DNA of 17,028 nucleotides, taken from the IMG/VR virus record IMGVR_UViG_3300023174_000135, one strand, 5' to 3'. This document shows, piece by piece, positions 3,219-17,028 of this stretch. The stretch's first letter is position 1; each line of letters opens with the position of its first letter. Made by a program: the position numbers and the translations under genes. The stretch is from a virus. Lineage: Duplodnaviria; Heunggongvirae; Uroviricota; Caudoviricetes. Under the pieces are notes generated by a model. That model made no database searches, was not told the origin of the DNA, and was given only the letters and a program-made list of their open reading frames with translations.

Positions 3219-3248
3219 TTTGTTTTTTGAATTTTTTTTGTAATTTTG
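3219..3248 (+). promoter_or_regulatory. Bacteroidota-type housekeeping-sigma promoter
   Basis: TTTG(3219-3222)-N18-TAATTTTG(3241-3248) fits the -33 TTTG / -7 TAnnTTTG consensus, 15 nt before ATG 3264. Confidence 0.65.
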
Positions 3249-3263
3249 TGTAAAATTAATTCT

Positions 3264-5006
3264 ATGCGAAGTTATAATCAAGGCAGCAAATGCCAAGAAC
3301 ATTTTGGCGACTGGACACAGGCACAATTAGATGCCATGAATCCTAAACAACTTATTAATATAATTAAGAACTTTCAGAAAGTTGATAATTTAATTATCAT
3401 GACTGATAGTTATAAAATGACACACCATCTGGCTTTACCAGATAATCTACAAGAATCTTATGCTTATCTTGAAGCAAGAGGTGGTGAAATGCCTTATACA
3501 ACACTTGCTTTACTTCAATACTATATTAAACGGTATTTAGCAGGAGTTCGTATTACCCCTGAAAAAATTGAAGAGGCACGACAAAAAAATATTGCACATT
3601 TTGGTTTTGATTGTTTCAATTCTGATATGTGGTATTATATTTGGGAAAATCATGGTGGAAAACTTCCACTTGAAATTAAAGCAGTTCCAGAAGGCACACC
3701 AGTTGCGATTAAGAATGTTTTAATGACAATTAAAAATACAGATACAACTACTGATAAATGTGCGCCACTTGTAAATATAATTGAAACTTTACTTCTTAAA
3801 GTATGGGCTCCTAATACGGTAGCAACCTACTCAAGAGTTGTTCGCACATTAATCTTTAAATATCACCAATTATCTTCTGAAGCTCCATTATACTTAATTA
3901 ATTTTATGCATCATGATTTTGGTTATCGTGGTGTTAGTTCAGAAGAAACAGCACGTATTCTTGGAGCAGCTGCACTTTCATCTGGGTTTGTTGGCACAGA
4001 TACAATGGGTGCTTTAGTTTTAGCAAACGACTATTATAATGAACCAATGGCTGGATTTAGCGTAATAGCAACAGAACATAGTGTTGTTTGTTCTTATGGC
4101 GCAAGAGAAAAAGAGCTTGATGCTTATTTAACTATTATTGAAAAAGTTAAAAAACATTGCGCCAATGTCAATCCATTATCAGGTGTAATTATCTTATCAT
4201 TAGTTAGTGATACTTATAACATATATAATGTATGTAAAAGAATACTTCCTCAATTAAGAGAACATTTTATTGATTGGAGAAACAACAATGGCATTCCAAT
4301 TAAAATTGTAATTCGTCCTGATTCTGGTGATCCAGCAACCGTTTTATTTGGTTATAATCATTCTGGATATCATGCTTATGATTTAAAAACTTTAGAAACT
4401 ATTAATAGAATTGCATTAGATATGAATATAGCTGATGTTGAGGCTGGAGAATTAGTTAATAAAGGAATTTTTAAAATTCTTTTTGATGAATTTGGCTATA
4501 CAACCAATGGAAAAGGATTTAAAGTTTTTCATCCACAAATAGGTGTTTTACAAGGTGATGGTGTTCATTACAATATGATGAAAAACATGTATGATATTAT
4601 GATCAGACAAAAATTAGATATCATGAATTTAGTTTTTGGTTCTGGTGGTAAATATCTTCAAACACACGACAGAGATGAACAAGGTTATGCTACAAAGGTT
4701 ATACATGTTATTATTGATAACGAGAGTATATGTGTACAGAAAAATCCAATAACTGATGCAGCTAAAAAATCTAAAAAAGGTTATTTAAAACTTGTTCGCA
4801 CTGGACCTACTTGGAAAGATTTCATCACACTTCAATCTGATGATCCTGGTTTTGATGAAGCTGAAGATTTCTTACAAACTGTATTCTTAAACGGTGAATT
4901 GGTTCTTGAATATGATTTTTCTGATTTAAGAAAAAATTCAGAAATCTTACCAGAAGAATATGCTTTATTACCTGAAGAAATTGAAAAATTTGAATTTCAG
5001 GATTAA
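3264..5006 (+). CDS. nadV: nicotinamide phosphoribosyltransferase family protein (Nampt/NadV, ~580 aa)
   Basis: Contains TDSYK, HDFGYRGVSS, GTDT, ATEHS (phospho-His), SDTY, IRPDSGDP, QGDGV, FGSGG, DRD and KSKKG. Asp of GTDT (equivalent to human D219) favours nicotinamide. Start moved to ATG 3264 because TTG 3246 lies inside the -7 promoter box. Confidence 0.92.
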   Translation: MRSYNQGSKCQEHFGDWTQAQLDAMNPKQLINIIKNFQKVDNLIIMTDSYKMTHHLALPDNLQESYAYLEARGGEMPYTTLALLQYYIKRYLAGVRITPEKIEEARQKNIAHFGFDCFNSDMWYYIWENHGGKLPLEIKAVPEGTPVAIKNVLMTIKNTDTTTDKCAPLVNIIETLLLKVWAPNTVATYSRVVRTLIFKYHQLSSEAPLYLINFMHHDFGYRGVSSEETARILGAAALSSGFVGTDTMGALVLANDYYNEPMAGFSVIATEHSVVCSYGAREKELDAYLTIIEKVKKHCANVNPLSGVIILSLVSDTYNIYNVCKRILPQLREHFIDWRNNNGIPIKIVIRPDSGDPATVLFGYNHSGYHAYDLKTLETINRIALDMNIADVEAGELVNKGIFKILFDEFGYTTNGKGFKVFHPQIGVLQGDGVHYNMMKNMYDIMIRQKLDIMNLVFGSGGKYLQTHDRDEQGYATKVIHVIIDNESICVQKNPITDAAKKSKKGYLKLVRTGPTWKDFITLQSDDPGFDEAEDFLQTVFLNGELVLEYDFSDLRKNSEILPEEYALLPEEIEKFEFQD

Positions 5007-5015
5007 AAAATAACT

Positions 5016-5048
5016 TTTAGCCCTATATAACAGTTATATAGGGCTAAA
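5016..5048. repeat. 33-bp inverted repeat (16-bp perfect arms, 1-nt spacer), terminator or operator
   Basis: TTTAGCCCTATATAAC-A-GTTATATAGGGCTAAA between the nadV stop and ATG 5055, without a clean T-tract. Confidence 0.85.
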
Positions 5049-5054
5049 TTTCTT

Positions 5055-5270
5055 ATGAAAGCAGTTTTTATAGATGAAGTAAATTATATGGGTTCTGGCA
5101 ACCAATTTTTTACCTTACATAAAATCTATGATGTTGAACAATCAGATATATTAGATAACTTATATAAGGTTGAAAATGATAAAGGATTTTATGTAAATGT
5201 CAAAAAAACAAGATTTATGCCTTTGTATGAATGGCGAAATAATCAAATTGACGAAATTTTAAAAGATTAA
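5055..5270 (+). CDS. hypothetical protein (71 aa)
   Basis: ATG ORF ending 2 nt before apt, with C-terminal EWRNNQIDEILKD. No family confidently recognised. Confidence 0.7.
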   Translation: MKAVFIDEVNYMGSGNQFFTLHKIYDVEQSDILDNLYKVENDKGFYVNVKKTRFMPLYEWRNNQIDEILKD

Positions 5271-5272
5271 CA

Positions 5273-5809
5273 ATGGAATTATCACAATACCAATTAGAAC
5301 TATTTGAATCTTTAACAGAAAAATATCCTGATTTCCCAATAAAAGGAATTACATTTAAAGACCTTTCATTATTATATACATCAACTGAAGCTTTATCACA
5401 TCTTGAAATACTCATATTGCGTGATTTAGGTCCACTTTATCCCGATTGTGTAATAGGATGTGATGCCAGAGGGTTTATATTAGGAACAATTGTTGCTCGT
5501 TGTTTGGATATACCATTAGTTTTAGCAAGGAAATCTGGTAAATTACCAGGTGTTTTATTATCTAAAAAATATGGTTTAGAATATGGTTCAGCAGAATTAC
5601 AAATGCATAAACATATTATTACTAAATATAAATCACCTATAATTGCGGATGATGTATTAGCAACTGGCGGAACAGTTTTAGCAATAACAGATATGTTAAA
5701 AGAGGTTAATATTATACCAAATTCATTTTTCTTTTTGTCAGAAATTATGGATTTAAATGCAAGGGAAAAATTAGAACAAATTGCACCTGTATTTTCGATC
5801 TTAAAATAA
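5273..5809 (+). CDS. apt: adenine phosphoribosyltransferase
   Basis: YPDFPIKGITFKD, DARGF, RKSGKLPG, YGLEYG and the PRPP-binding loop ADDVLATGGT are the Apt signature set. Confidence 0.92.
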   Translation: MELSQYQLELFESLTEKYPDFPIKGITFKDLSLLYTSTEALSHLEILILRDLGPLYPDCVIGCDARGFILGTIVARCLDIPLVLARKSGKLPGVLLSKKYGLEYGSAELQMHKHIITKYKSPIIADDVLATGGTVLAITDMLKEVNIIPNSFFFLSEIMDLNAREKLEQIAPVFSILK

Positions 5810-5820
5810 TTGAAGGAAAA

Positions 5821-5829
5821 TAATATATA
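5821..5829 (+). promoter_or_regulatory. TAATATATA motif
   Basis: Exact motif 5 nt before ATG 5835. Confidence 0.5.
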
Positions 5830-5834
5830 CTTTT

Positions 5835-6407
5835 ATGAAGTATTTAAAGTTTTTCGAAAATTACGATTTTAATGATTTATTAGCTGTTAATTTATCTAAC
5901 AATAAAATTAAAGATTTAATAGACACTAGATTTTTAAATGAAGAATTTAAATCGGTATATGGTGCAACCAATTATCCAGAAATGGATGTAAATGAAACTA
6001 TAATTGAAAGAAAAAAAGATAATAAAGTTCCATATTTACAAATTGGAATTGGTTTAGAATCTCTTTTTGAGTTTGAAAAATCTCCAAAAGGTTTAGAAGA
6101 ATTAAAAAAACATTTACTTGGTGGTAAAATTTTAAAACCAAAAAAAAATGGAGATGATAAAAATAAAAATAGAATTTTTCCATCTTTAACAATTGATATA
6201 CTTTTAACAATACATAATGAACAATTATTTTGTATGATTGATGGTGATTTCACACTTTTTGTAGGTGATTTTCCTTTGATAAACCATAGTGTCGAAAAAA
6301 AGAAATATGTTAAATTTAACACCGATGTTGAAATGCTTTTAATAGATGTTTTAAATAATTTAAACATTTATACCATATACGAAATTCAAGAATTAAACAA
6401 AGATTAA
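5835..6407 (+). CDS. hypothetical protein with MKYLKFFENY N-terminal tag (190 aa)
   Basis: Full ORF between apt and rpe. The N-terminus resembles other tagged proteins in the window, and there is an internal FLNE. Confidence 0.75.
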   Translation: MKYLKFFENYDFNDLLAVNLSNNKIKDLIDTRFLNEEFKSVYGATNYPEMDVNETIIERKKDNKVPYLQIGIGLESLFEFEKSPKGLEELKKHLLGGKILKPKKNGDDKNKNRIFPSLTIDILLTIHNEQLFCMIDGDFTLFVGDFPLINHSVEKKKYVKFNTDVEMLLIDVLNNLNIYTIYEIQELNKD

Positions 6408-6408
6408 T

Positions 6409-7041
6409 ATGATTATCGCCCCATCTTTATTATCCGCTAATTTTCTTAATTTAGCAGATGATATAAAAATGATTAACGATTCACAAGCTGAATGGGTCCA
6501 CTTAGATGTAATTGATGGACAATTTGCACCAAATATAACATTTGGCATTCCTGTAATAGAAGCAGTTAGAAAAGCAACTGATAAATTTTTAGATGCACAT
6601 TTAATGATTAATAATCCAGAAAATATGATAGATGCTTTCATAAAAGCTGGAGTTGATTCAATTACGGTTCATTATGAAGCTTGTACACATTTACATCGTG
6701 TTATTCAACAAATAAAATCATATGGCATTAAAGCAGCTGTGGCTTTAAATCCTCATACATCAGTGCAATCATTAGAGAATATTATTGATGATGTTGATAT
6801 GGTATTACTTATGAGTGTGAATCCAGGATTTTCAGGTCAAAAGTTTATTGATTTTACCTATGAGAAATTATTAAAATTAAGAAAAATATCACATCATACT
6901 TTAATTCAAATTGATGGTGGTGTATCATTAGATAATATAGAAAAATTAAAGTTATATGGCGCTAATTGCGTTGTAGCTGGAAATGCAGTATTTAAATCAC
7001 AAAATCCTTTAGAAACTATTAATAAAATGGCTTCATTATGA
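6409..7041 (+). CDS. rpe: ribulose-phosphate 3-epimerase
   Basis: IAPSLLSANF, HLDVIDG, PNITFG, DAHLMI, HYEACTHLHR, LMSVNPGF.GQKF, QIDGG and VAGNAVF, with metal ligands His/Asp/His/Asp present. HYEACTHLHR resembles Bacteroidota Rpe as I recall it. Confidence 0.95.
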   Translation: MIIAPSLLSANFLNLADDIKMINDSQAEWVHLDVIDGQFAPNITFGIPVIEAVRKATDKFLDAHLMINNPENMIDAFIKAGVDSITVHYEACTHLHRVIQQIKSYGIKAAVALNPHTSVQSLENIIDDVDMVLLMSVNPGFSGQKFIDFTYEKLLKLRKISHHTLIQIDGGVSLDNIEKLKLYGANCVVAGNAVFKSQNPLETINKMASL

Positions 7042-7445
7042 GTTATAATCTTTTTTTAGACGACAATTTTACACCTGAACAAATTGCTAATTTACCAAAA
7101 ACTCCTGTTGCAAATAAATCAAAATATAGGAATTTTAATTGGTTAATAACCAAAACATATGACGAATTTGTTAAAATAATTACCGAAAATGGACTACCAG
7201 AATATGTTTCATTTGATCATGATTTATCACCAGAACATTATGAAATGTTATTAAATGATGAAAATTGGAATAAATCAGATGATGAAATTGAAATTGATTA
7301 TTCTTTATTTCAAGAAAAAACTGGCTGGCATGCAGCTAAATGGTTAATTAAATATTGCAATAAAGAAAAACAAGAATTACCAATATGCTTGGTTCATTCT
7401 CAAAATTCAGTCGGACATAAAAATATAATTAATCTTCTTTTTTAG
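7038..7445 (+). CDS. cyclic-phosphate processing receiver-like domain protein (135 aa)
   Basis: LFLDD...TYDEF..I...GLP.YVSFDHDL...KTGW.AAKWL...VHSQNSVG..NI matches the stand-alone receiver family with DHDL. ATGA overlap with the rpe stop. Confidence 0.75.
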   Translation: MSYNLFLDDNFTPEQIANLPKTPVANKSKYRNFNWLITKTYDEFVKIITENGLPEYVSFDHDLSPEHYEMLLNDENWNKSDDEIEIDYSLFQEKTGWHAAKWLIKYCNKEKQELPICLVHSQNSVGHKNIINLLF

Positions 7446-8059: not shown

Positions 8060-8075
8060 GCAACCTTTTTTATAT
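8040..8075. terminator. bidirectional Rho-independent terminator (perfect 36-bp palindrome)
   Basis: ATATAAAAAAGGTTGCTT|AAGCAACCTTTTTTATAT between convergent genes, with a T6 tract on both strands. Both stop codons fall inside it. Confidence 0.85.
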
Positions 8076-8324
8076 AAATAAAATTGTAAAATTTTCATAT
8101 CGGAAATTCAATGTTTCGTTTACATATTTCCTAAAAGCTTCTGGATTCATTTTAAAATTTGATTCATCAAATTCGTTTGATTCGCAAATAGCGATATTAC
8201 CTTGTTGTAATGCAATATCAAATGATATACCATCTATAAATTTTGATAATTCTTCCGATAATAAACTAAAAATGCGAGCGTTTTTATCACCTTTAATTGA
8301 AGTTTCTTTAATTAATAGTTTCAT
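8070..8324 (-). CDS. hypothetical protein (84 aa)
   Basis: ATG ORF ending in the palindromic terminator, with AATATATATA upstream (overlapping the previous stop). Confidence 0.65.
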   Translation of the reverse strand: MKLLIKETSIKGDKNARIFSLLSEELSKFIDGISFDIALQQGNIAICESNEFDESNFKMNPEAFRKYVNETLNFRYENFTILFI

Positions 8325-8339
8325 ATAATAATTTTTTAT

Positions 8340-8531
8340 TTATATATATTTTTTCAAATAATCATATATACAATGAGTTCTATCATCATTGTTTACTATT
8401 GTAATAGTATTTTCGACAAAAATATTACCATCTTTGATTTCTAATTTATCGGACATGATTAAATTCTTAAATGATTCCTTATCATCTTCGGATAATTGTA
8501 AATAATTTTCTACCATTTTAAATATATTCAT
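8340..8531 (-). CDS. hypothetical protein (63 aa)
   Basis: ATG ORF co-oriented with neighbours, with upstream GATATATA and a lone TAATTTTG (8572-8579, minus). Confidence 0.6.
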   Translation of the reverse strand: MNIFKMVENYLQLSEDDKESFKNLIMSDKLEIKDGNIFVENTITIVNNDDRTHCIYDYLKKYI

Positions 8532-8593: not shown

Positions 8594-9304
8594 CTATCTA
8601 TCTAATGTTTCGTTCAATCGTAAATTAGTAATTTCTAATTCAATATATTCAATAAACCTATTCAAATACCTATTTAATATATTTAAATCTAAATTAATTT
8701 CACGATTTAAAAATGGTGCTAAATCAGGATAATTTTTAATTATTCCATTTTTGGTATATGAATCAGAATCAAAACCATCAACTAAAGAAAATACTTGCCC
8801 ATATTGAAAAGCATTTACCTTGTAGATGTCCTCAATCTTTTCTTTTTTACCAACAAAATCGGTCATAATTGTATAATCAATTTTCTTTAAAACAGCTAAT
8901 CTTTTATATAAATCTCCTTTTAATGCTGGTTTAATTTCTTGTCGTAAATAGGTTCTTGAATAAAAAGTAATAATAAATCTAGCAACTCTTAAAATCTTCT
9001 CATTTAAATCTCTTTCAACAGGAGTTAGAATTGGATTAGGAAATTTTTGCTCATGTAGATGATATGTATAATAAAGACAATTGTTTAACTCATCAATAGT
9101 TCCTTTGTGACAATCTATTATTTGGTTATTATTTATAGTAATAAGATTAGAATTAATTTCTTTATCAGGATATATTAATTGTAATTCAATATTAAAGTTT
9201 TTACATAAAGCATGTGCCTTATCTATATCATTTGGTATAGAATCATATTCAACTAATATATCATAATCTTGGCTATTTTCCGAGCCAAATAAATAATAAC
9301 GCAT
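8594..9304 (-). CDS. putative Pol-beta superfamily nucleotidyltransferase-like protein (~236 aa)
   Basis: N-terminal YLFGSENSQDYDILV fits hG[GS]...Dh[DE]h, with an unusually short GS-to-DxD spacer, followed by a largely helical C-terminal region. Start set at ATG 9304 (MRYY) because the TTG-started extension runs through a promoter. Confidence 0.6.
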   Translation of the reverse strand: MRYYLFGSENSQDYDILVEYDSIPNDIDKAHALCKNFNIELQLIYPDKEINSNLITINNNQIIDCHKGTIDELNNCLYYTYHLHEQKFPNPILTPVERDLNEKILRVARFIITFYSRTYLRQEIKPALKGDLYKRLAVLKKIDYTIMTDFVGKKEKIEDIYKVNAFQYGQVFSLVDGFDSDSYTKNGIIKNYPDLAPFLNREINLDLNILNRYLNRFIEYIELEITNLRLNETLDR

Positions 9305-9307
9305 AAG

Positions 9308-9338
9308 CAAAATTACAAAAAAATTTGTTAAAATCAAA
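9308..9338 (-). promoter_or_regulatory. Bacteroidota-type promoter for the nucleotidyltransferase gene
   Basis: Minus strand TTTG(9338-9335)-N19-TAATTTTG(9315-9308), then CTT-ATG. Confidence 0.65.
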
Positions 9339-9355
9339 AAAAATAATTACTTTTG
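9324..9355 (+). promoter_or_regulatory. Bacteroidota-type promoter for the RNA ligase gene
   Basis: TTTG(9324-9327)-N20-TACTTTTG(9348-9355), 21 nt before ATG 9377. Confidence 0.65.
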
Positions 9356-9376
9356 CTGATATAAAATTTTAATAAA

Positions 9377-10015
9377 ATGTCTAAATACCCCAAAACTTAC
9401 CATTTACCTTGGTCTAAAGGACTTCTTAACGAAGATAGAATGTGTCAAGATATATCTAGATTTATTGGTGTTCCGATTGTTATTACCGAAAAAATGGACG
9501 GAGAAAACAATGCTATGACAAATAAAGGCGTATATGCTCGCTCACATGCTGATTTTACGAATTCGCCATGGTCTGCTAAGATAAGAGAATTACATTCAGT
9601 TATTAAATCTGGTATATCTGATGATTTATTTATATTTGGTGAAGGCATGTCCGCTTTGCATTCAATAAAATATGATAATTTAACATCTCATTTTTATATG
9701 TTTGGCGCAAGATTTAATGGTATTTGGTCATCTTGGGATGAAGTAGAAGATTATGCTTTTTTATTAGATTTACCAACTGTTCCTGTTTTATTTAAAGGTA
9801 TAGTTAATTCCGAAAAAGAATTACAAAGTTTAACCGAAAAATTAAGTGCAGAAACATCATTTTTTGGAGGCGCAAGAGAAGGTATTGTATGTAGAATTCA
9901 AAGCGAGTTTAAAGAAGAAGATTTTGAATTTTGTGTCGCTAAAATTGTGAGGGCTAATCATATAGGCACAGACGAACATTGGCAAAAAAATTGGAAATGG
10001 GCAAATATAAAATAG
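9377..10015 (+). CDS. ATP-dependent RNA ligase family protein (nucleotidyltransferase domain only, 212 aa)
   Basis: KYPKTYHLPWS N-terminus, motif I TEKMDGEN (Lys at 9491), ARSH, motif III FGE, IIIa FYMF, IV REGIV and V AKIVR, plus NH..TDEHW tail. Confidence 0.85.
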   Translation: MSKYPKTYHLPWSKGLLNEDRMCQDISRFIGVPIVITEKMDGENNAMTNKGVYARSHADFTNSPWSAKIRELHSVIKSGISDDLFIFGEGMSALHSIKYDNLTSHFYMFGARFNGIWSSWDEVEDYAFLLDLPTVPVLFKGIVNSEKELQSLTEKLSAETSFFGGAREGIVCRIQSEFKEEDFEFCVAKIVRANHIGTDEHWQKNWKWANIK

Positions 10016-10055: not shown

Positions 10056-10664
10056 ATGGAAAAAATATACTATACTGTTTATAAAACAATTAACTTAATT
10101 AATGGTAATTATTATATTGGAGTTCACAAGACTAAAAATCTTAATGATTCATATCTCGGTTCCGGTAAAATATTGAAACAAGCCATAAAAAAATATGGAT
10201 CATCTAATTTTATTAAAGAAATACTTTTTATTTTTGATAATCCAGAGGAAGCGTATAACAAAGAAAGGGAAATAGTAAATTCTGATTTTGTCAAAGAAAC
10301 AAATACATATAATGTAGCAATTGGTGGAATACCAACTACAGATTTCTACCCACATAGAATATATTTATCCGGTGATAAACATCCTATGTGGGGCAAAAAA
10401 CATTCAGAAGAATCAAATAAAAAAAGAGCCAAAAAACTTCTTGGTAAAAAAATGTCAGATGCAGCTAGAGCAAATATGTCAAAAAGTCAAAAGGGTCATA
10501 AATCTTGGAATAAAGGAAAATCTCTTTCAGATAAAGATAAACAAGCTAAATCAATAGCGGCACTAAAGTTAGTAAAATTAGAATGTCCATATTGTAAAAA
10601 ATTAACAGATCCAGGTAATAGTAAACAATGGCATTTTGAGAATTGTAAAATGAAAAATAATTAA
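10056..10664 (+). CDS. free-standing GIY-YIG (Seg-like) homing endonuclease with NUMOD3-like repeats (202 aa)
   Basis: YTVYKTINLINGNYYIGVH...YLGSG..LK.AIKKYG..NF.KEIL...E catalytic module. MWGKKHSEES, GKKMSD and WNKGKSLS NUMOD3-like repeats, and a C-terminal CPYC...HFENC. Confidence 0.88.
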   Translation: MEKIYYTVYKTINLINGNYYIGVHKTKNLNDSYLGSGKILKQAIKKYGSSNFIKEILFIFDNPEEAYNKEREIVNSDFVKETNTYNVAIGGIPTTDFYPHRIYLSGDKHPMWGKKHSEESNKKRAKKLLGKKMSDAARANMSKSQKGHKSWNKGKSLSDKDKQAKSIAALKLVKLECPYCKKLTDPGNSKQWHFENCKMKNN

Positions 10665-12614: not shown

Positions 12615-13712
12615 CTAAAATTCTTCACCTGAAAATCTATATGTGAATCCTTTAACTATTAAAGGTTTTCCTGTTTTTTGATTATACTTTTGATGACAGC
12701 ATCTTGATATATTTGCACCAGTTTCGCTTATTCCCGCTTCTATACAAGCTCTTTTTATTGAATCAAATTCTTCTATAAATATACCATCTAATGTATATTT
12801 AGAAACTTTTCTACTTGTTTTTTGTATATATTGATTATATGGCACATAATCAAATAAATCACCTTCATATCTAAAAGTAGTATCATTAACCGTATAATAA
12901 CTTTTATTTTTACAACAATTATTAATCAAATGTGGATGACATCCAGTTTTTTTAGATGCTTGTATAATGCCAATATATTTTCCCAATATATTTCCATATA
13001 AATCATAGTGAATATAATTTTTTTGTGGCTTTCTATTTTTAATTTTTTCTTCTTTAATTTTTGCCTGTTTATCAATAGTTTTTTGCTTCCTTTTCGTAGG
13101 CAATTTTTCTACTTGATTGGCATCTAAAATTTTTTGTATCTCTTCCATATTTGTAATTTTTTTTGCATAACCACATGTGAAAAATTGATCACTATATCTA
13201 AAATAGTATCCTTTAAATGTTGGAATTTCATCTTTACAACATCGAACTACAGATCTCCTGTTAAAAACAGGATGATTATCCAATTCTTTTGAAGATTCAA
13301 ATTTTTGTATAAAATTATTATTAAAATCAAATTGAAGTATAATTTTTCTAAATGGATGGTTATATTTCATTCTTTTTACCGATTCTTCTTCATGTTTTCT
13401 TCCAGTCCAATCATAACCATCTCCACCATCAGTATCATTAGTTAAATCAGGGATTAATTCTCTATATTTTTTAATATATTCTATTTCATAATTATTAACT
13501 TCTTCTTTTGTAGTTTCCAAAAGAGTTTGTATTTGTGGAGTTAAATGATTATCTAATAAACTCTTTATCCATTGATTTTTTGGAGTCCAAAACCCATGTT
13601 TTTTACAATCACCAATATGTTTTTTAAGTCTATTTTTAAGATTATTGGTTTTTCCAATATATCTAATTCTATTATCAGTTGGATCAATTAATGCATAAAT
13701 ATAATATGTCAT
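12615..13712 (-). CDS. free-standing GIY-YIG homing endonuclease with NUMOD3- and three NUMOD1-like modules (365 aa)
   Basis: YIYALIDP...RYIGKT...RLKKH...EIEYI catalytic domain and GRKHEEES. Repeats ILQFDFNNNFIQKFES, IHYDLYGNILGKYIG and VSKYTLDGIFIEEFDS, each followed by ..CC..and Y(Y/T)FRY-like ends. Confidence 0.88.
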   Translation of the reverse strand: MTYYIYALIDPTDNRIRYIGKTNNLKNRLKKHIGDCKKHGFWTPKNQWIKSLLDNHLTPQIQTLLETTKEEVNNYEIEYIKKYRELIPDLTNDTDGGDGYDWTGRKHEEESVKRMKYNHPFRKIILQFDFNNNFIQKFESSKELDNHPVFNRRSVVRCCKDEIPTFKGYYFRYSDQFFTCGYAKKITNMEEIQKILDANQVEKLPTKRKQKTIDKQAKIKEEKIKNRKPQKNYIHYDLYGNILGKYIGIIQASKKTGCHPHLINNCCKNKSYYTVNDTTFRYEGDLFDYVPYNQYIQKTSRKVSKYTLDGIFIEEFDSIKRACIEAGISETGANISRCCHQKYNQKTGKPLIVKGFTYRFSGEEF

Positions 13713-13816: not shown

Positions 13817-15331
13817 ATGACTAATAAAATAAATAAAAAAGTGGTGACTCGTGTCGCTCCAAGCCCAACAAGTCCTTATGGCTTACACGTTGGCAACATT
13901 CGAACTATGTTATTTAATTATTTATTTGCTAAACAAAATGGTGGAACATTTTATTTGCGAATAGAAGATACAGATCAAGATCGTTTTTGCGAAGGTTCAG
14001 AAGAATTAATTAAAAAAACTCTTGATTGGTTAGGCATAGAAGCTGATTTTGCACCTTGGACTGATAATAAACCTTTTGGCGCAATGCGTCAATCTGAAAG
14101 AGATTATACACATTATGTTAAGTATCTTTTAGATAATGGTTATGCTTATTATGCTTTTGATACAAAAGAAGAATTAGATGCTTTAAGAGCTAATCAACAA
14201 AATTTTTCATATGGACATACAAATCGTATGACATTAAAAAATTCATTGGCTTTATCTTCCGAAGAAGTTAATAAACTTTTAGAAGCAAATACACCATATA
14301 CAATTAGGTTTAAAGTTGATGCTAATCAAGATATAACTTTTACTGATATAATTCGTGGTGAAGTTACATTCAACACAAATCAAATGGATGATAAAGTTTT
14401 AGTTAAAACTAATAAAATTCCAACTTATCATTTAGCTAACATTTGTGATGATCATGATATGGGAACTACACATACTATTCGTGGTGAAGAATGGCTTTCT
14501 TCTACTCCTTTACATGTTTTAATTTATAAAGCATTTGGTTGGGAAATGCCTGAATTTGCGCATTTACCATTAGTGTTAAATCCACCGCCATTAAAAGGCA
14601 AATTATCTAAAAGAAATGCTGTTAAATTAGGATTTCCAATTTTCCCATTTGGTGGTAATTCAGAAGAAGGTTATTTAAAAGGGTTTGTTGATGAAGGTTA
14701 TGACCCAGCAGCCGTAATAAACTTTCTTTTATTATTGGGTTGGACACCACATGGTATGAAAGATGGTGATGAAATTTTATCATTAGAAGATGGTATTAAG
14801 TTATTTGATTTACATTCAGTGCATAAAGCAGGTGCAAGATATGATATTGATAAATTAAAATTTTTCAATGGATATTATTTGCAACATAAAACTACAGATG
14901 AAGAATTGTTTAAATATGTAAATTTTGGTAATTCTAATTATTCTGATTCACAAAAATTAGAAATTTTAGATATGGCTAAAAAACGTTCACATTTTAAGCA
15001 TGAAATGCAACATGTGGTTGATTTATTTATTGATTCTGTTAAATTAGATGAAAAACAATTATCTACAATTACAGAATTACATAATGAAACATTTGTGCAG
15101 TTTTTGAAATTGGCTGAAACAATTGAATGGAATCATGATTCTATTAAGCAAACTATAAACGATGCTTGTAATTTAACAGGAATTAAAATGGGTAAATTTA
15201 TGCCTATTGTTAGAACAATTCTTGCAGGTGGTATTACAGGACCAGATATGGTTAGTTTTATGACAATCATCGGAAAAGAAGAAGTTAGAAAGCGTGTTAA
15301 TACGGTTTCAATGAAGTATAATTTGATTTAA
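13817..15331 (+). CDS. gltX: glutamate--tRNA ligase (class I)
   Basis: TRVAPSPT, HIGH-equivalent HVGN (13886-13897), LRIEDTDQ.R, RQSER, PTYHLANICDDH, HTIRGEEW, FAHLPL, KMSKS-equivalent KLSKR (14600-14614), LGW, and an anticodon-binding helical C-terminus. The KLGFPIFP segment after KLSKR resembles Bacteroidota GluRS. Confidence 0.95.
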   Translation: MTNKINKKVVTRVAPSPTSPYGLHVGNIRTMLFNYLFAKQNGGTFYLRIEDTDQDRFCEGSEELIKKTLDWLGIEADFAPWTDNKPFGAMRQSERDYTHYVKYLLDNGYAYYAFDTKEELDALRANQQNFSYGHTNRMTLKNSLALSSEEVNKLLEANTPYTIRFKVDANQDITFTDIIRGEVTFNTNQMDDKVLVKTNKIPTYHLANICDDHDMGTTHTIRGEEWLSSTPLHVLIYKAFGWEMPEFAHLPLVLNPPPLKGKLSKRNAVKLGFPIFPFGGNSEEGYLKGFVDEGYDPAAVINFLLLLGWTPHGMKDGDEILSLEDGIKLFDLHSVHKAGARYDIDKLKFFNGYYLQHKTTDEELFKYVNFGNSNYSDSQKLEILDMAKKRSHFKHEMQHVVDLFIDSVKLDEKQLSTITELHNETFVQFLKLAETIEWNHDSIKQTINDACNLTGIKMGKFMPIVRTILAGGITGPDMVSFMTIIGKEEVRKRVNTVSMKYNLI

Positions 15332-16387: not shown

Positions 16388-16419
16388 TTTGTTAAAGTCA
16401 TTTTTAAGTATTATATTTG
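16388..16419 (+). promoter_or_regulatory. Bacteroidota-type promoter
   Basis: TTTG(16388-16391)-N20-TATATTTG(16412-16419), 28 nt before ATG 16448. Confidence 0.65.
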
Positions 16420-16447: not shown

Positions 16448-17028
16448 ATGGCTTACGTTAGAAAAACAAAAGATGTCCACATCTCTCCAAAATTATTAGA
16501 AGTTTTAAACAGAATTGCAAATAAATCCGAAATTGCAAAAAAATTATTAAAAACAAAAATTTCAAAAGAAGATTTAGTTGATGAACCAGTAGATTATTTG
16601 ACTATCTCTAAAAAAGATCCGTCTAAAATTTCTTATGCTTATCCGGAAAAATTAGCAAAAATTGAAAATCCAGATGACTACTGGACATTTAAAGGCAGAG
16701 TTGAAGCAAAGCCAGCTTCAGCTATTAAAAAGGTTTTAAAAGATGTAACAGAAAAAGAATTGGATATTTTCACATCTGCTTTTAAAGCAGCTACTGCTCA
16801 AAAAGATTTTTATTTTGATGTAGTAGAAGGAACTGATATTAAAAAATACTATAATCAAGAAACGTATGCATATGATAAATATGGAAGTTTAACTAATTCA
16901 TGTATGAAATATGGAAATTGTGAAAATTATTTCCCTATATATACAGACAATCCAGAAATTTGTAAAATGTTAGTTATGTTTGATAACGATAAACGAATTC
17001 TTGGTAGAGCTATTTTATGGAATAAAGC
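16448..17028 (+). CDS. hypothetical protein, 3'-truncated by the window edge (>193 aa), absent from the supplied ORF track
   Basis: Manual translation MAYVRKTKDVHISPKLLEVL...GSLTNSCMKYGNCENYFPIYTDNPEICKMLV...ILGRAILWNK is open to the window end and has its own promoter after a terminator. Confidence 0.85.
   Translation, partial: MAYVRKTKDVHISPKLLEVLNRIANKSEIAKKLLKTKISKEDLVDEPVDYLTISKKDPSKISYAYPEKLAKIENPDDYWTFKGRVEAKPASAIKKVLKDVTEKELDIFTSAFKAATAQKDFYFDVVEGTDIKKYYNQETYAYDKYGSLTNSCMKYGNCENYFPIYTDNPEICKMLVMFDNDKRILGRAILWNK

Follow-up and report, generated by a model that had tools for sequence, protein, structure and literature searches.

What is the role of a small nucleotidyltransferase (NTase)-like protein that a bacterial virus encodes head-to-head with an RNA ligase? 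This question was raised by a locus in a Caudoviricetes genome fragment (IMG/VR record IMGVR_UViG_3300023174_000135), of which the whole stretch of 17,028 nucleotides was analysed and is hereafter called the window. The features at stake are the following:

8594-9304, minus strand: NTase-like protein of 236 aa, from the translated open reading frame (ORF); N-terminus MRYYLFGSENSQDYDILV
9377-10015, plus strand: ATP-dependent RNA ligase of 212 aa, Rnl2/PF09414 type (Pfam 3.4e-22; PHROG RNA ligase families)
9308-9338, minus strand: Bacteroidota-type promoter match TTTG-N19-TAATTTTG, directed at the NTase gene
9324-9355, plus strand: Bacteroidota-type promoter match TTTG-N20-TACTTTTG, directed at the RNA ligase gene

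The original prediction, made from the sequence alone, had seen here a non-RlaP, Pol-beta-like NTase with four residues between its GS and DxD motifs, diverging from an intact RNA ligase across 72 bp on two overlapping promoters, and had read the two proteins as a possible early RNA-end-repair pair, with CCA or terminal nucleotide addition as putative chemistry. As a description of the locus this was accurate: translation gave the 236-aa protein and its motif spacing, the ligase matched its Pfam model, the start codons face each other across the 72-bp gap (9305-9376), and both promoters matched exactly, as motifs. A longer NTase frame starting with TTG at 9337 was considered unlikely, given that homologs share the start Met of the 236-aa ORF. 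As for its function, the protein most likely contributes to the repair of broken ends of tRNA or RNA in infected cells, a role suggested by the bacterial RNA-repair operons in which its family sits.

At the structural level, the 236-aa protein is likely a member of the Pol-beta-type NTase superfamily, since its structural matches were uniformly NTases, its GS and DxD residues are invariant, and its language-model neighbours carry NTP_transf_2/Polbeta. Its AlphaFold2 model (30-sequence alignment; predicted local distance difference test score 94.4, predicted template modelling score 0.87) displayed the predicted Pol-beta-type architecture, in the order beta1 (3-6), short turn, beta2 (13-19), helix, beta3 (49-58), beta4 (61-65), helix and helical domain. 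It thereby comprises an N-terminal alpha/beta NTase domain (residues ~1-95) and a C-terminal helical domain rich in conserved Lys and Arg. Foldseek matches in the PDB were weak (best E 0.026, to the aminoglycoside nucleotidyltransferase (ANT) ANT(9)). In an alignment-based structure search (VIA), the top 25 PDB rows were all Pol-beta-type NTases, as were the top nine of a wider search, with Z scores between 5 and 8.2, a value of about 8 being middling by the tool's own calibration. HalB, the oligodeoxyadenylate synthase of Hailong, came first (8.2), followed by ANT(3'')(9) (8.0), AadA and ANT(9) (7.4-7.8 each), ANT(4') (5.2-5.6) and MntA (~5). The alignments with HalB, ANT(3'')(9), AadA and ANT(9) covered 168-177 residues and both domains.

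HalB resembles the window protein in size and two-domain layout and likewise starts directly at beta1, but it pairs with the effector HalA in defence, no such partner occurs in the window, and the sequences are unrelated. AadA, ANT(3'')(9), ANT(9) and ANT(4') are also among the best full-length structural matches. They nevertheless share only 9-12% identity with the window protein, possess an additional N-terminal helix, a GS helix and a catalytic Glu on beta3, and come from a resistance context instead of RNA repair. MNT antitoxins of HEPN-MNT pairs are minimal (~100-140 aa), whereas the window protein has its own helical domain.

At the sequence level, scans of the protein with the models of Pfam (E <= 1), NCBIfam, PHROG and PADLOC were all negative, and the only match of a profile search among PDB sequences was spurious (E 1.7). 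A full HMMER scan recovered 580 representatives (50% clustering) at E <= 1e-3, of which 416 at E <= 1e-10. With at least 580 clusters at 50% identity, this is a large but uncurated family, absent from Pfam, NCBIfam and PHROGs. Among deposited phages, homologs occurred only in very large genomes, i.e. an uncultured 636-kb phage, Bacillus phage G (gp208), Lak megaphages and Salicola phage SCTP-2 (gp171). Structure searches added homologs with several domains in Klosneuvirus (A0A1V0SII7, 1039 aa), Terrestrivirus (A0A3G4ZP14), Indivirus (A0A1V0SCP1), Acanthamoeba (L8GIQ8), Naegleria (D2VT45) and Thecamonas (A0A0L0DI29). A literature search, whose coverage excluded Burroughs & Aravind 2016 (NAR 44:8525), returned no description of the family, and the passages of a jumbo-phage survey covered here (PMC7824862) describe RlaP, cREC and ligases but not this family.

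Conservation was counted over up to 150 diverse representatives sharing less than 50% identity (143-150 per column). The family signature is GSxxSxDxD, where G7, S8, S11, D13 and D15 each recur in 141 or more of the 143 representatives. It contains both hallmarks of the superfamily: the hG[GS] nucleotide-binding motif at the end of beta1 (F6-G7-S8, in 143-144 of 144) and the [DE]h[DE]h metal-binding pair on beta2 (D13 in 142 and D15 in 141 of 143). Other near-invariant residues, over 150 representatives, are N51/N53, K67-G68, D71-E72, N74-N75, T80, H84 and Q86, and the C-terminal half contributes conserved basic residues (R98, K103, R106, R109, R117, R121, K125, K162, K185 and R201). Members differ at their N-terminus: 70 of the 120 closest homologs (P0026-P0123) display an extension of 12-20 aa of the form MKYIKxFxxF or MILKYxxF, which the window protein lacks.

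The genomic context of bacterial members provided the main evidence for function. Scanning one genome per prokaryotic species yielded 59 loci, mostly chromosomal in Flavobacterium, with others in Kordia, Taibaiella, Saprospirales, Chitinophagales, Cytophagales, Eubacteriales, Sericytochromatia and further groups. Neighbour clustering revealed a 338-aa protein within 7 kb of the NTase gene in 37 of them, on the same strand and at a median of 98 bp downstream, which Pfam identified as an Rnl1-type RNA ligase (PF09511). The same operons encode a T4-like Pnkp (AAA_33 kinase and HAD_PNKP, 3.9e-51), Hen1_N, PNKP_ligase and RlaP itself (PF10127, 8.8e-67), together with RNase_T, TatD, DUF434-DUF5616, an R2K ATP-grasp protein and Ro60/TROVE. 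Gene order varies across Flavobacterium, Kordia, Taibaiella and Saprospirales, yet the linkage of NTase, ligase and Pnkp persists; in metagenome-assembled genomes of Eubacteriales (Bacillota) the order is [kinase-HD][Rnl1-like][NTase]. Hen1_N, PNKP_ligase, kinase-phosphatase and ligase also form the gene set of the bacterial Pnkp1-Rnl-Hen1 and Pnkp/Hen1 systems (PMC4411300), but those systems were reconstituted without any NTase.

Two tandem NTase paralogs, both with GS..DxD, were present in 19 of the 59 loci (13 of them in Flavobacterium). Upstream of such paralogs (L023, L025 and other Flavobacterium loci) lies a conserved 746-aa protein with a weak Prok-RING_4 match only, and a SUKH/SMI1-type protein also precedes them in the Flavobacterium repair operon.

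Domain fusions pointed in the same direction. A search for longer homologs gave a single 426-aa protein, and three of the longer family representatives carried a C-terminal HAD_PNKP phosphatase; a dedicated search then found at least 146 clusters of ~390-aa proteins combining the NTase with a C-terminal HAD_PNKP 3'-phosphatase, on bacterial contigs of up to 2.2 Mb. Their NTase domain thus precedes the very domain that follows the kinase in T4 Pnkp. Unlike that kinase, it has no P-loop fold, and the window protein has no HAD domain. In one fusion operon a P-loop AAA_33 kinase is encoded two genes downstream and a HAD_SAK_2 phosphatase upstream. The idea that the NTase domain substitutes for the Pnkp 5'-kinase was rejected because separate P-loop kinases accompany it in the same operons. 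The physical coupling instead suggests that NTase and fused 3'-phosphatase act sequentially on one 3' end. Taken at the level of comparative genomics, these data firmly tie the family to RNA repair in bacteria, and the predicted linkage of homologs to RNA ligases proved strong there, end-healing enzymes included.

RlaP is the obvious point of comparison. It likewise combines an N-terminal NTase domain with a C-terminal helical domain and is found in RNA ligase/Pnkp/Hen1 repair operons and in jumbo phages; it adds one or two nucleoside monophosphates (NMP) to RNA 3'-OH ends and prefers damaged tRNA mimics (PMC12776372). The window protein was not of this type, in agreement with the original prediction: it had no PF10127 match at E <= 1, hhalign against the operon RlaP sequences gave a probability of at most 5%, GS and DxD are separated by 4 residues instead of ~11, the YG/WG helix is absent, and Asn appears to occupy the expected position of the third carboxylate. 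Separate PF10127-type matches were found in phage G, in three other phage records and in bacterial operons; among the phage matches, only those of phage G and one IMG/VR record exceeded the family cut-off. Since both proteins co-occur in the same operons and phage genomes, the NTase family is distinct from RlaP, does not replace it and is presumably non-redundant with it. The co-existence of two separate lineages further suggests that their substrate or nucleotide specificities differ.

With moderate confidence, we propose that the window protein adds nucleotides to healed RNA 3'-OH ends. A host ribotoxin would first cut tRNA or rRNA. A phosphoesterase would then clear the 3' end to a 3'-OH; elsewhere this would fall to the PNKP-type HAD phosphatase, often fused to the NTase domain, while the window offers another candidate:

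7038-7445, plus strand: cREC (cyclic-phosphate processing receiver) domain protein (PF20274 at 1.3e-18), 1.2 kb from the NTase gene

This protein, whose gene is syntenic in the relatives L012 and L013, is a candidate 2',3'-cyclic-phosphate end-healing enzyme, a role predicted for cREC in PMC7824862. The NTase would next bind a nucleoside triphosphate through its GS loop and the metal-binding D13/D15, and restore the one or few nucleotides removed by the toxin. Finally, an ATP-dependent RNA ligase would seal the break, in the window the divergent Rnl2-type enzyme and in bacteria the Rnl1-type one.

Several observations weigh against this proposal, beginning with the local gene pair. The window ligase itself appeared intact: it matches PF09414 (RNA_ligase) over positions 2-170 of 171 and displays motif I KxDGxN (K39 within EKMDGEN). 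It consists of the adenylyltransferase domain only, 212 aa being too short to include the C-terminal domain found in T4 Rnl2. Its homologs are found in huge and jumbo phages, and the two phage genomes with the closest ones were not among the NTase matches. No relative of it flanked the NTase in nine IMG/VR phage loci (within 10 kb) or in phages G and SCTP-2 (within 6 kb), and in the records searched the PF09414 genes of those phages lay at least 24 kb from the NTase gene. L012 and L013 are the nearest long relatives (contigs of 225 kb and 47 kb; 74% identity; synteny with the window), and in both of these independent assemblies the reading frame of the Rnl2-like ligase shifts close to codon 12 (8962-9948 and 5344-6357, respectively). 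Gene calling there produced ORFs of 131 and 35 aa and a last, separate one of 81 (L012) or 90 aa (L013), which lies between ligase and NTase gene. In addition, no 5'-kinase occurred among the window genes, and in several other phyla many family members are encoded by solitary genes with unrelated surroundings.

The head-to-head pair is specific to the lineage of the window and is not a conserved module, because linkage is mostly absent in phages and the ligase is frameshifted in the nearest relatives. What stands of the predicted repair pair, on comparative genomics, is a non-RlaP NTase in RNA-end repair. Its pairing with this ligase on interlocked promoters was not recovered as a conserved unit, nor was an Rnl2-type enzyme as conserved partner, the bacterial partner being of Rnl1 type. 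Some phage loci displayed other arrangements. An Rnl1-type ligase lies ~0.6 kb upstream of the NTase in L011 (order [Rnl1-like]..[NTase][kinase-like]), a P-loop kinase-like gene 1.2-3.6 kb from it in L004, L007 and L009, and a PF09414 ligase 4.4 kb from it in L086.

The active site raises a second set of objections, besides the middling structural scores mentioned above. The helix of 9-13 residues that usually separates GS from DxD is missing, a 4-residue turn taking its place. On beta3 (49-58), the usual strand of the third carboxylate, N51 (126 of 148) and N53 (143 of 148) were conserved but no acidic residue was. The D15-N53 spacing of 38 equals the D49-E87 spacing of AadA, whose E87 is named in PDB titles of structural matches. 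The canonical third-carboxylate position thus appears to hold Asn, as judged by position along the strand. Given N51/N53 and this spacing, a canonical two-metal, general-base mechanism is not assured. The only other invariant acidic residues of the NTase domain, D71/E72 (142 and 148 of 150, after beta4), might provide an alternative third catalytic residue.

Because Asn appears to replace the third carboxylate and many members carry a fused 3'-phosphatase, a Pol-beta repair chemistry not yet described was also considered. The family would then either act on a terminal phosphate, by nucleotidylating or otherwise activating it, or put back one particular missing nucleotide in a reaction coupled to the ligase; we regard this as a speculative and rather improbable proposal. 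Taken as a full alternative to nucleotide addition, end activation would mean that the enzyme transfers NMP onto a terminal phosphate, yielding 5'-App-RNA or RNA(3')pp(5')N, or removes such adducts, and thereby feeds or bypasses ligase adenylylation. A phosphate nucleophile needs no general base, which suits the Asn, and the phosphatase fusion and kinase neighbours place the NTase where terminal phosphates are made and removed, a PNKP_ligase-type module moreover lying beside a separate ligase in the operons. This alternative nonetheless seems unlikely: we know of no precedent for terminal-phosphate NMP transfer in a Pol-beta fold, D71/E72 could serve as the base, and a phosphatase fused upstream of a phosphate-requiring enzyme would be counter-intuitive.

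The protein might also be an NMPylase that neutralises the attacking ribotoxin (e.g. a HEPN anticodon nuclease), comparable to the AMPylation of HepT toxins by MNT antitoxins. The SUKH-type immunity proteins of the Flavobacterium operons are compatible with this, but no HEPN gene was seen among the annotated neighbours of NTase loci, the best structural matches were the two-domain ANT and HalB proteins and not minimal MNTs, and both the PNKP-type phosphatase fusion and the tight ligase linkage would be left unexplained. We therefore consider this role quite improbable. Slightly more doubtful still is an enzyme making a signalling nucleotide or oligonucleotide (as HalB or CD-NTases) or modifying a small molecule (as ANTs), with the ligase nearby by coincidence in this phage. 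This would accord with the identity of the best structural matches, the lineage-specific ligase adjacency in phages and the standalone copies in several phyla; on the other hand, no conserved effector or sensor partner was found, the gene repeatedly lies among RNA-repair genes in Bacteroidota, in Bacillota and in phages even though their order is rearranged, and family members are fused to HAD_PNKP. Equally doubtful is a catalytically altered or inactive RNA-binding scaffold of a repair complex (the Flavobacterium tandem paralogs forming a heterodimer with one active subunit), which the paralogs in 19 loci and the apparently non-canonical third carboxylate might suggest, but which sits poorly with single copies in phages and with GS/DxD residues that are invariant in both paralogs and family-wide, arguing for retained nucleotide and metal binding.

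The expression and origin of the gene were considered as well. Scanning for the Bacteroidota pattern TTTG-N19-21-TAnnTTTG gave four matches in the whole window against 1.08 expected, a number reached in 2 of 200 shuffles. Both matches in the 72-bp gap, which share 15 bp, thus appear real as motifs, although only modestly above chance. The -7 box on the minus strand ends 3 nt ahead of the NTase ATG, with the same layout in L012, which implies a leaderless or nearly leaderless NTase mRNA. This promoter motif is kept in L012 and L013 despite the ligase frameshift. A further exact match was observed at 16388-16419, 29 bp upstream of an ORF starting at 16448. A sigma-70 promoter scan was uninformative (25 found, 21.9 expected), and a terminator scan found none.

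In a maximum-likelihood tree of 52 family members, the window NTase grouped with the huge-phage copies, a clade contained in a wider group with the Bacteroidota ligase-adjacent paralog, while phage G and L011 clustered with Bacillota copies (support 100/99). These placements argue that phage and host copies were exchanged more than once. Tree and promoter type together point to Bacteroidota as hosts of the window phage. Its NTase copy probably derived from them and would be read from a host-type promoter.

The remaining window genes look like those of a huge phage:

3246-7445: cluster of NAMPT (586 aa), a phosphoribosyltransferase (PRTase)-domain protein (178 aa), an unknown 190-aa protein, ribulose-phosphate 3-epimerase and cREC
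8070-8531, minus strand: two small ORFs (62 and 83 aa) from the ORF list, downstream of the NTase gene and in the same orientation
10056-10664, 12615-13712 (minus strand) and 1032-1355: two GIY-YIG/NUMOD homing endonucleases and a T5orf172 protein
13817-15331: phage-encoded glutamyl-tRNA synthetase (GluRS)
Elsewhere in the window: a DNA methylase and a GT25 glycosyltransferase, from library scans of the window proteins

The two small ORFs, which matched no family in Pfam and PHROG scans, are possibly co-transcribed with the NTase gene. The two homing endonucleases and the T5orf172 protein interrupt the region; one homing endonuclease gene sits immediately past the RNA ligase gene and may explain the variable local gene order among relatives. 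The NAMPT-to-cREC cluster is syntenic in L012 and L013 and resembles the phage sets for NAD+ salvage or reconstitution and cyclic-phosphate processing presented in PMC7824862. Aminoacyl-tRNA synthetase genes were also observed near other loci of the family (class I, tRNA-synt_1/1g, in L016; ArgRS- and AlaRS-like fragments in L086). The window itself had no megablast match among phage records. In a search of sequencing runs, the DNA runs matching the window were lake or freshwater metagenomes, one of them possibly the source sample, with no RNA run among the matches.

It is through RNA-repair pathways that cells and phages withstand abortive-infection nucleases and toxins that cut tRNA and rRNA. 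To our knowledge, RlaP is the only repair-dedicated NTase for which any biochemistry exists, dating from late 2025. The present analysis defines a second family of repair NTases, unrelated in sequence to RlaP and often encoded alongside it, which ranges from Bacteroidota and Bacillota to huge phages, Klosneuvirus-type giant viruses and amoebae. If the chemistry not yet described were true, it would amount to a fourth 'healing' activity common to bacteria, huge phages, giant viruses and amoebae. The family could yield a new tool for RNA 3'-end modification, and its characterisation would reveal which RNA damage needs two different end-rebuilding enzymes.

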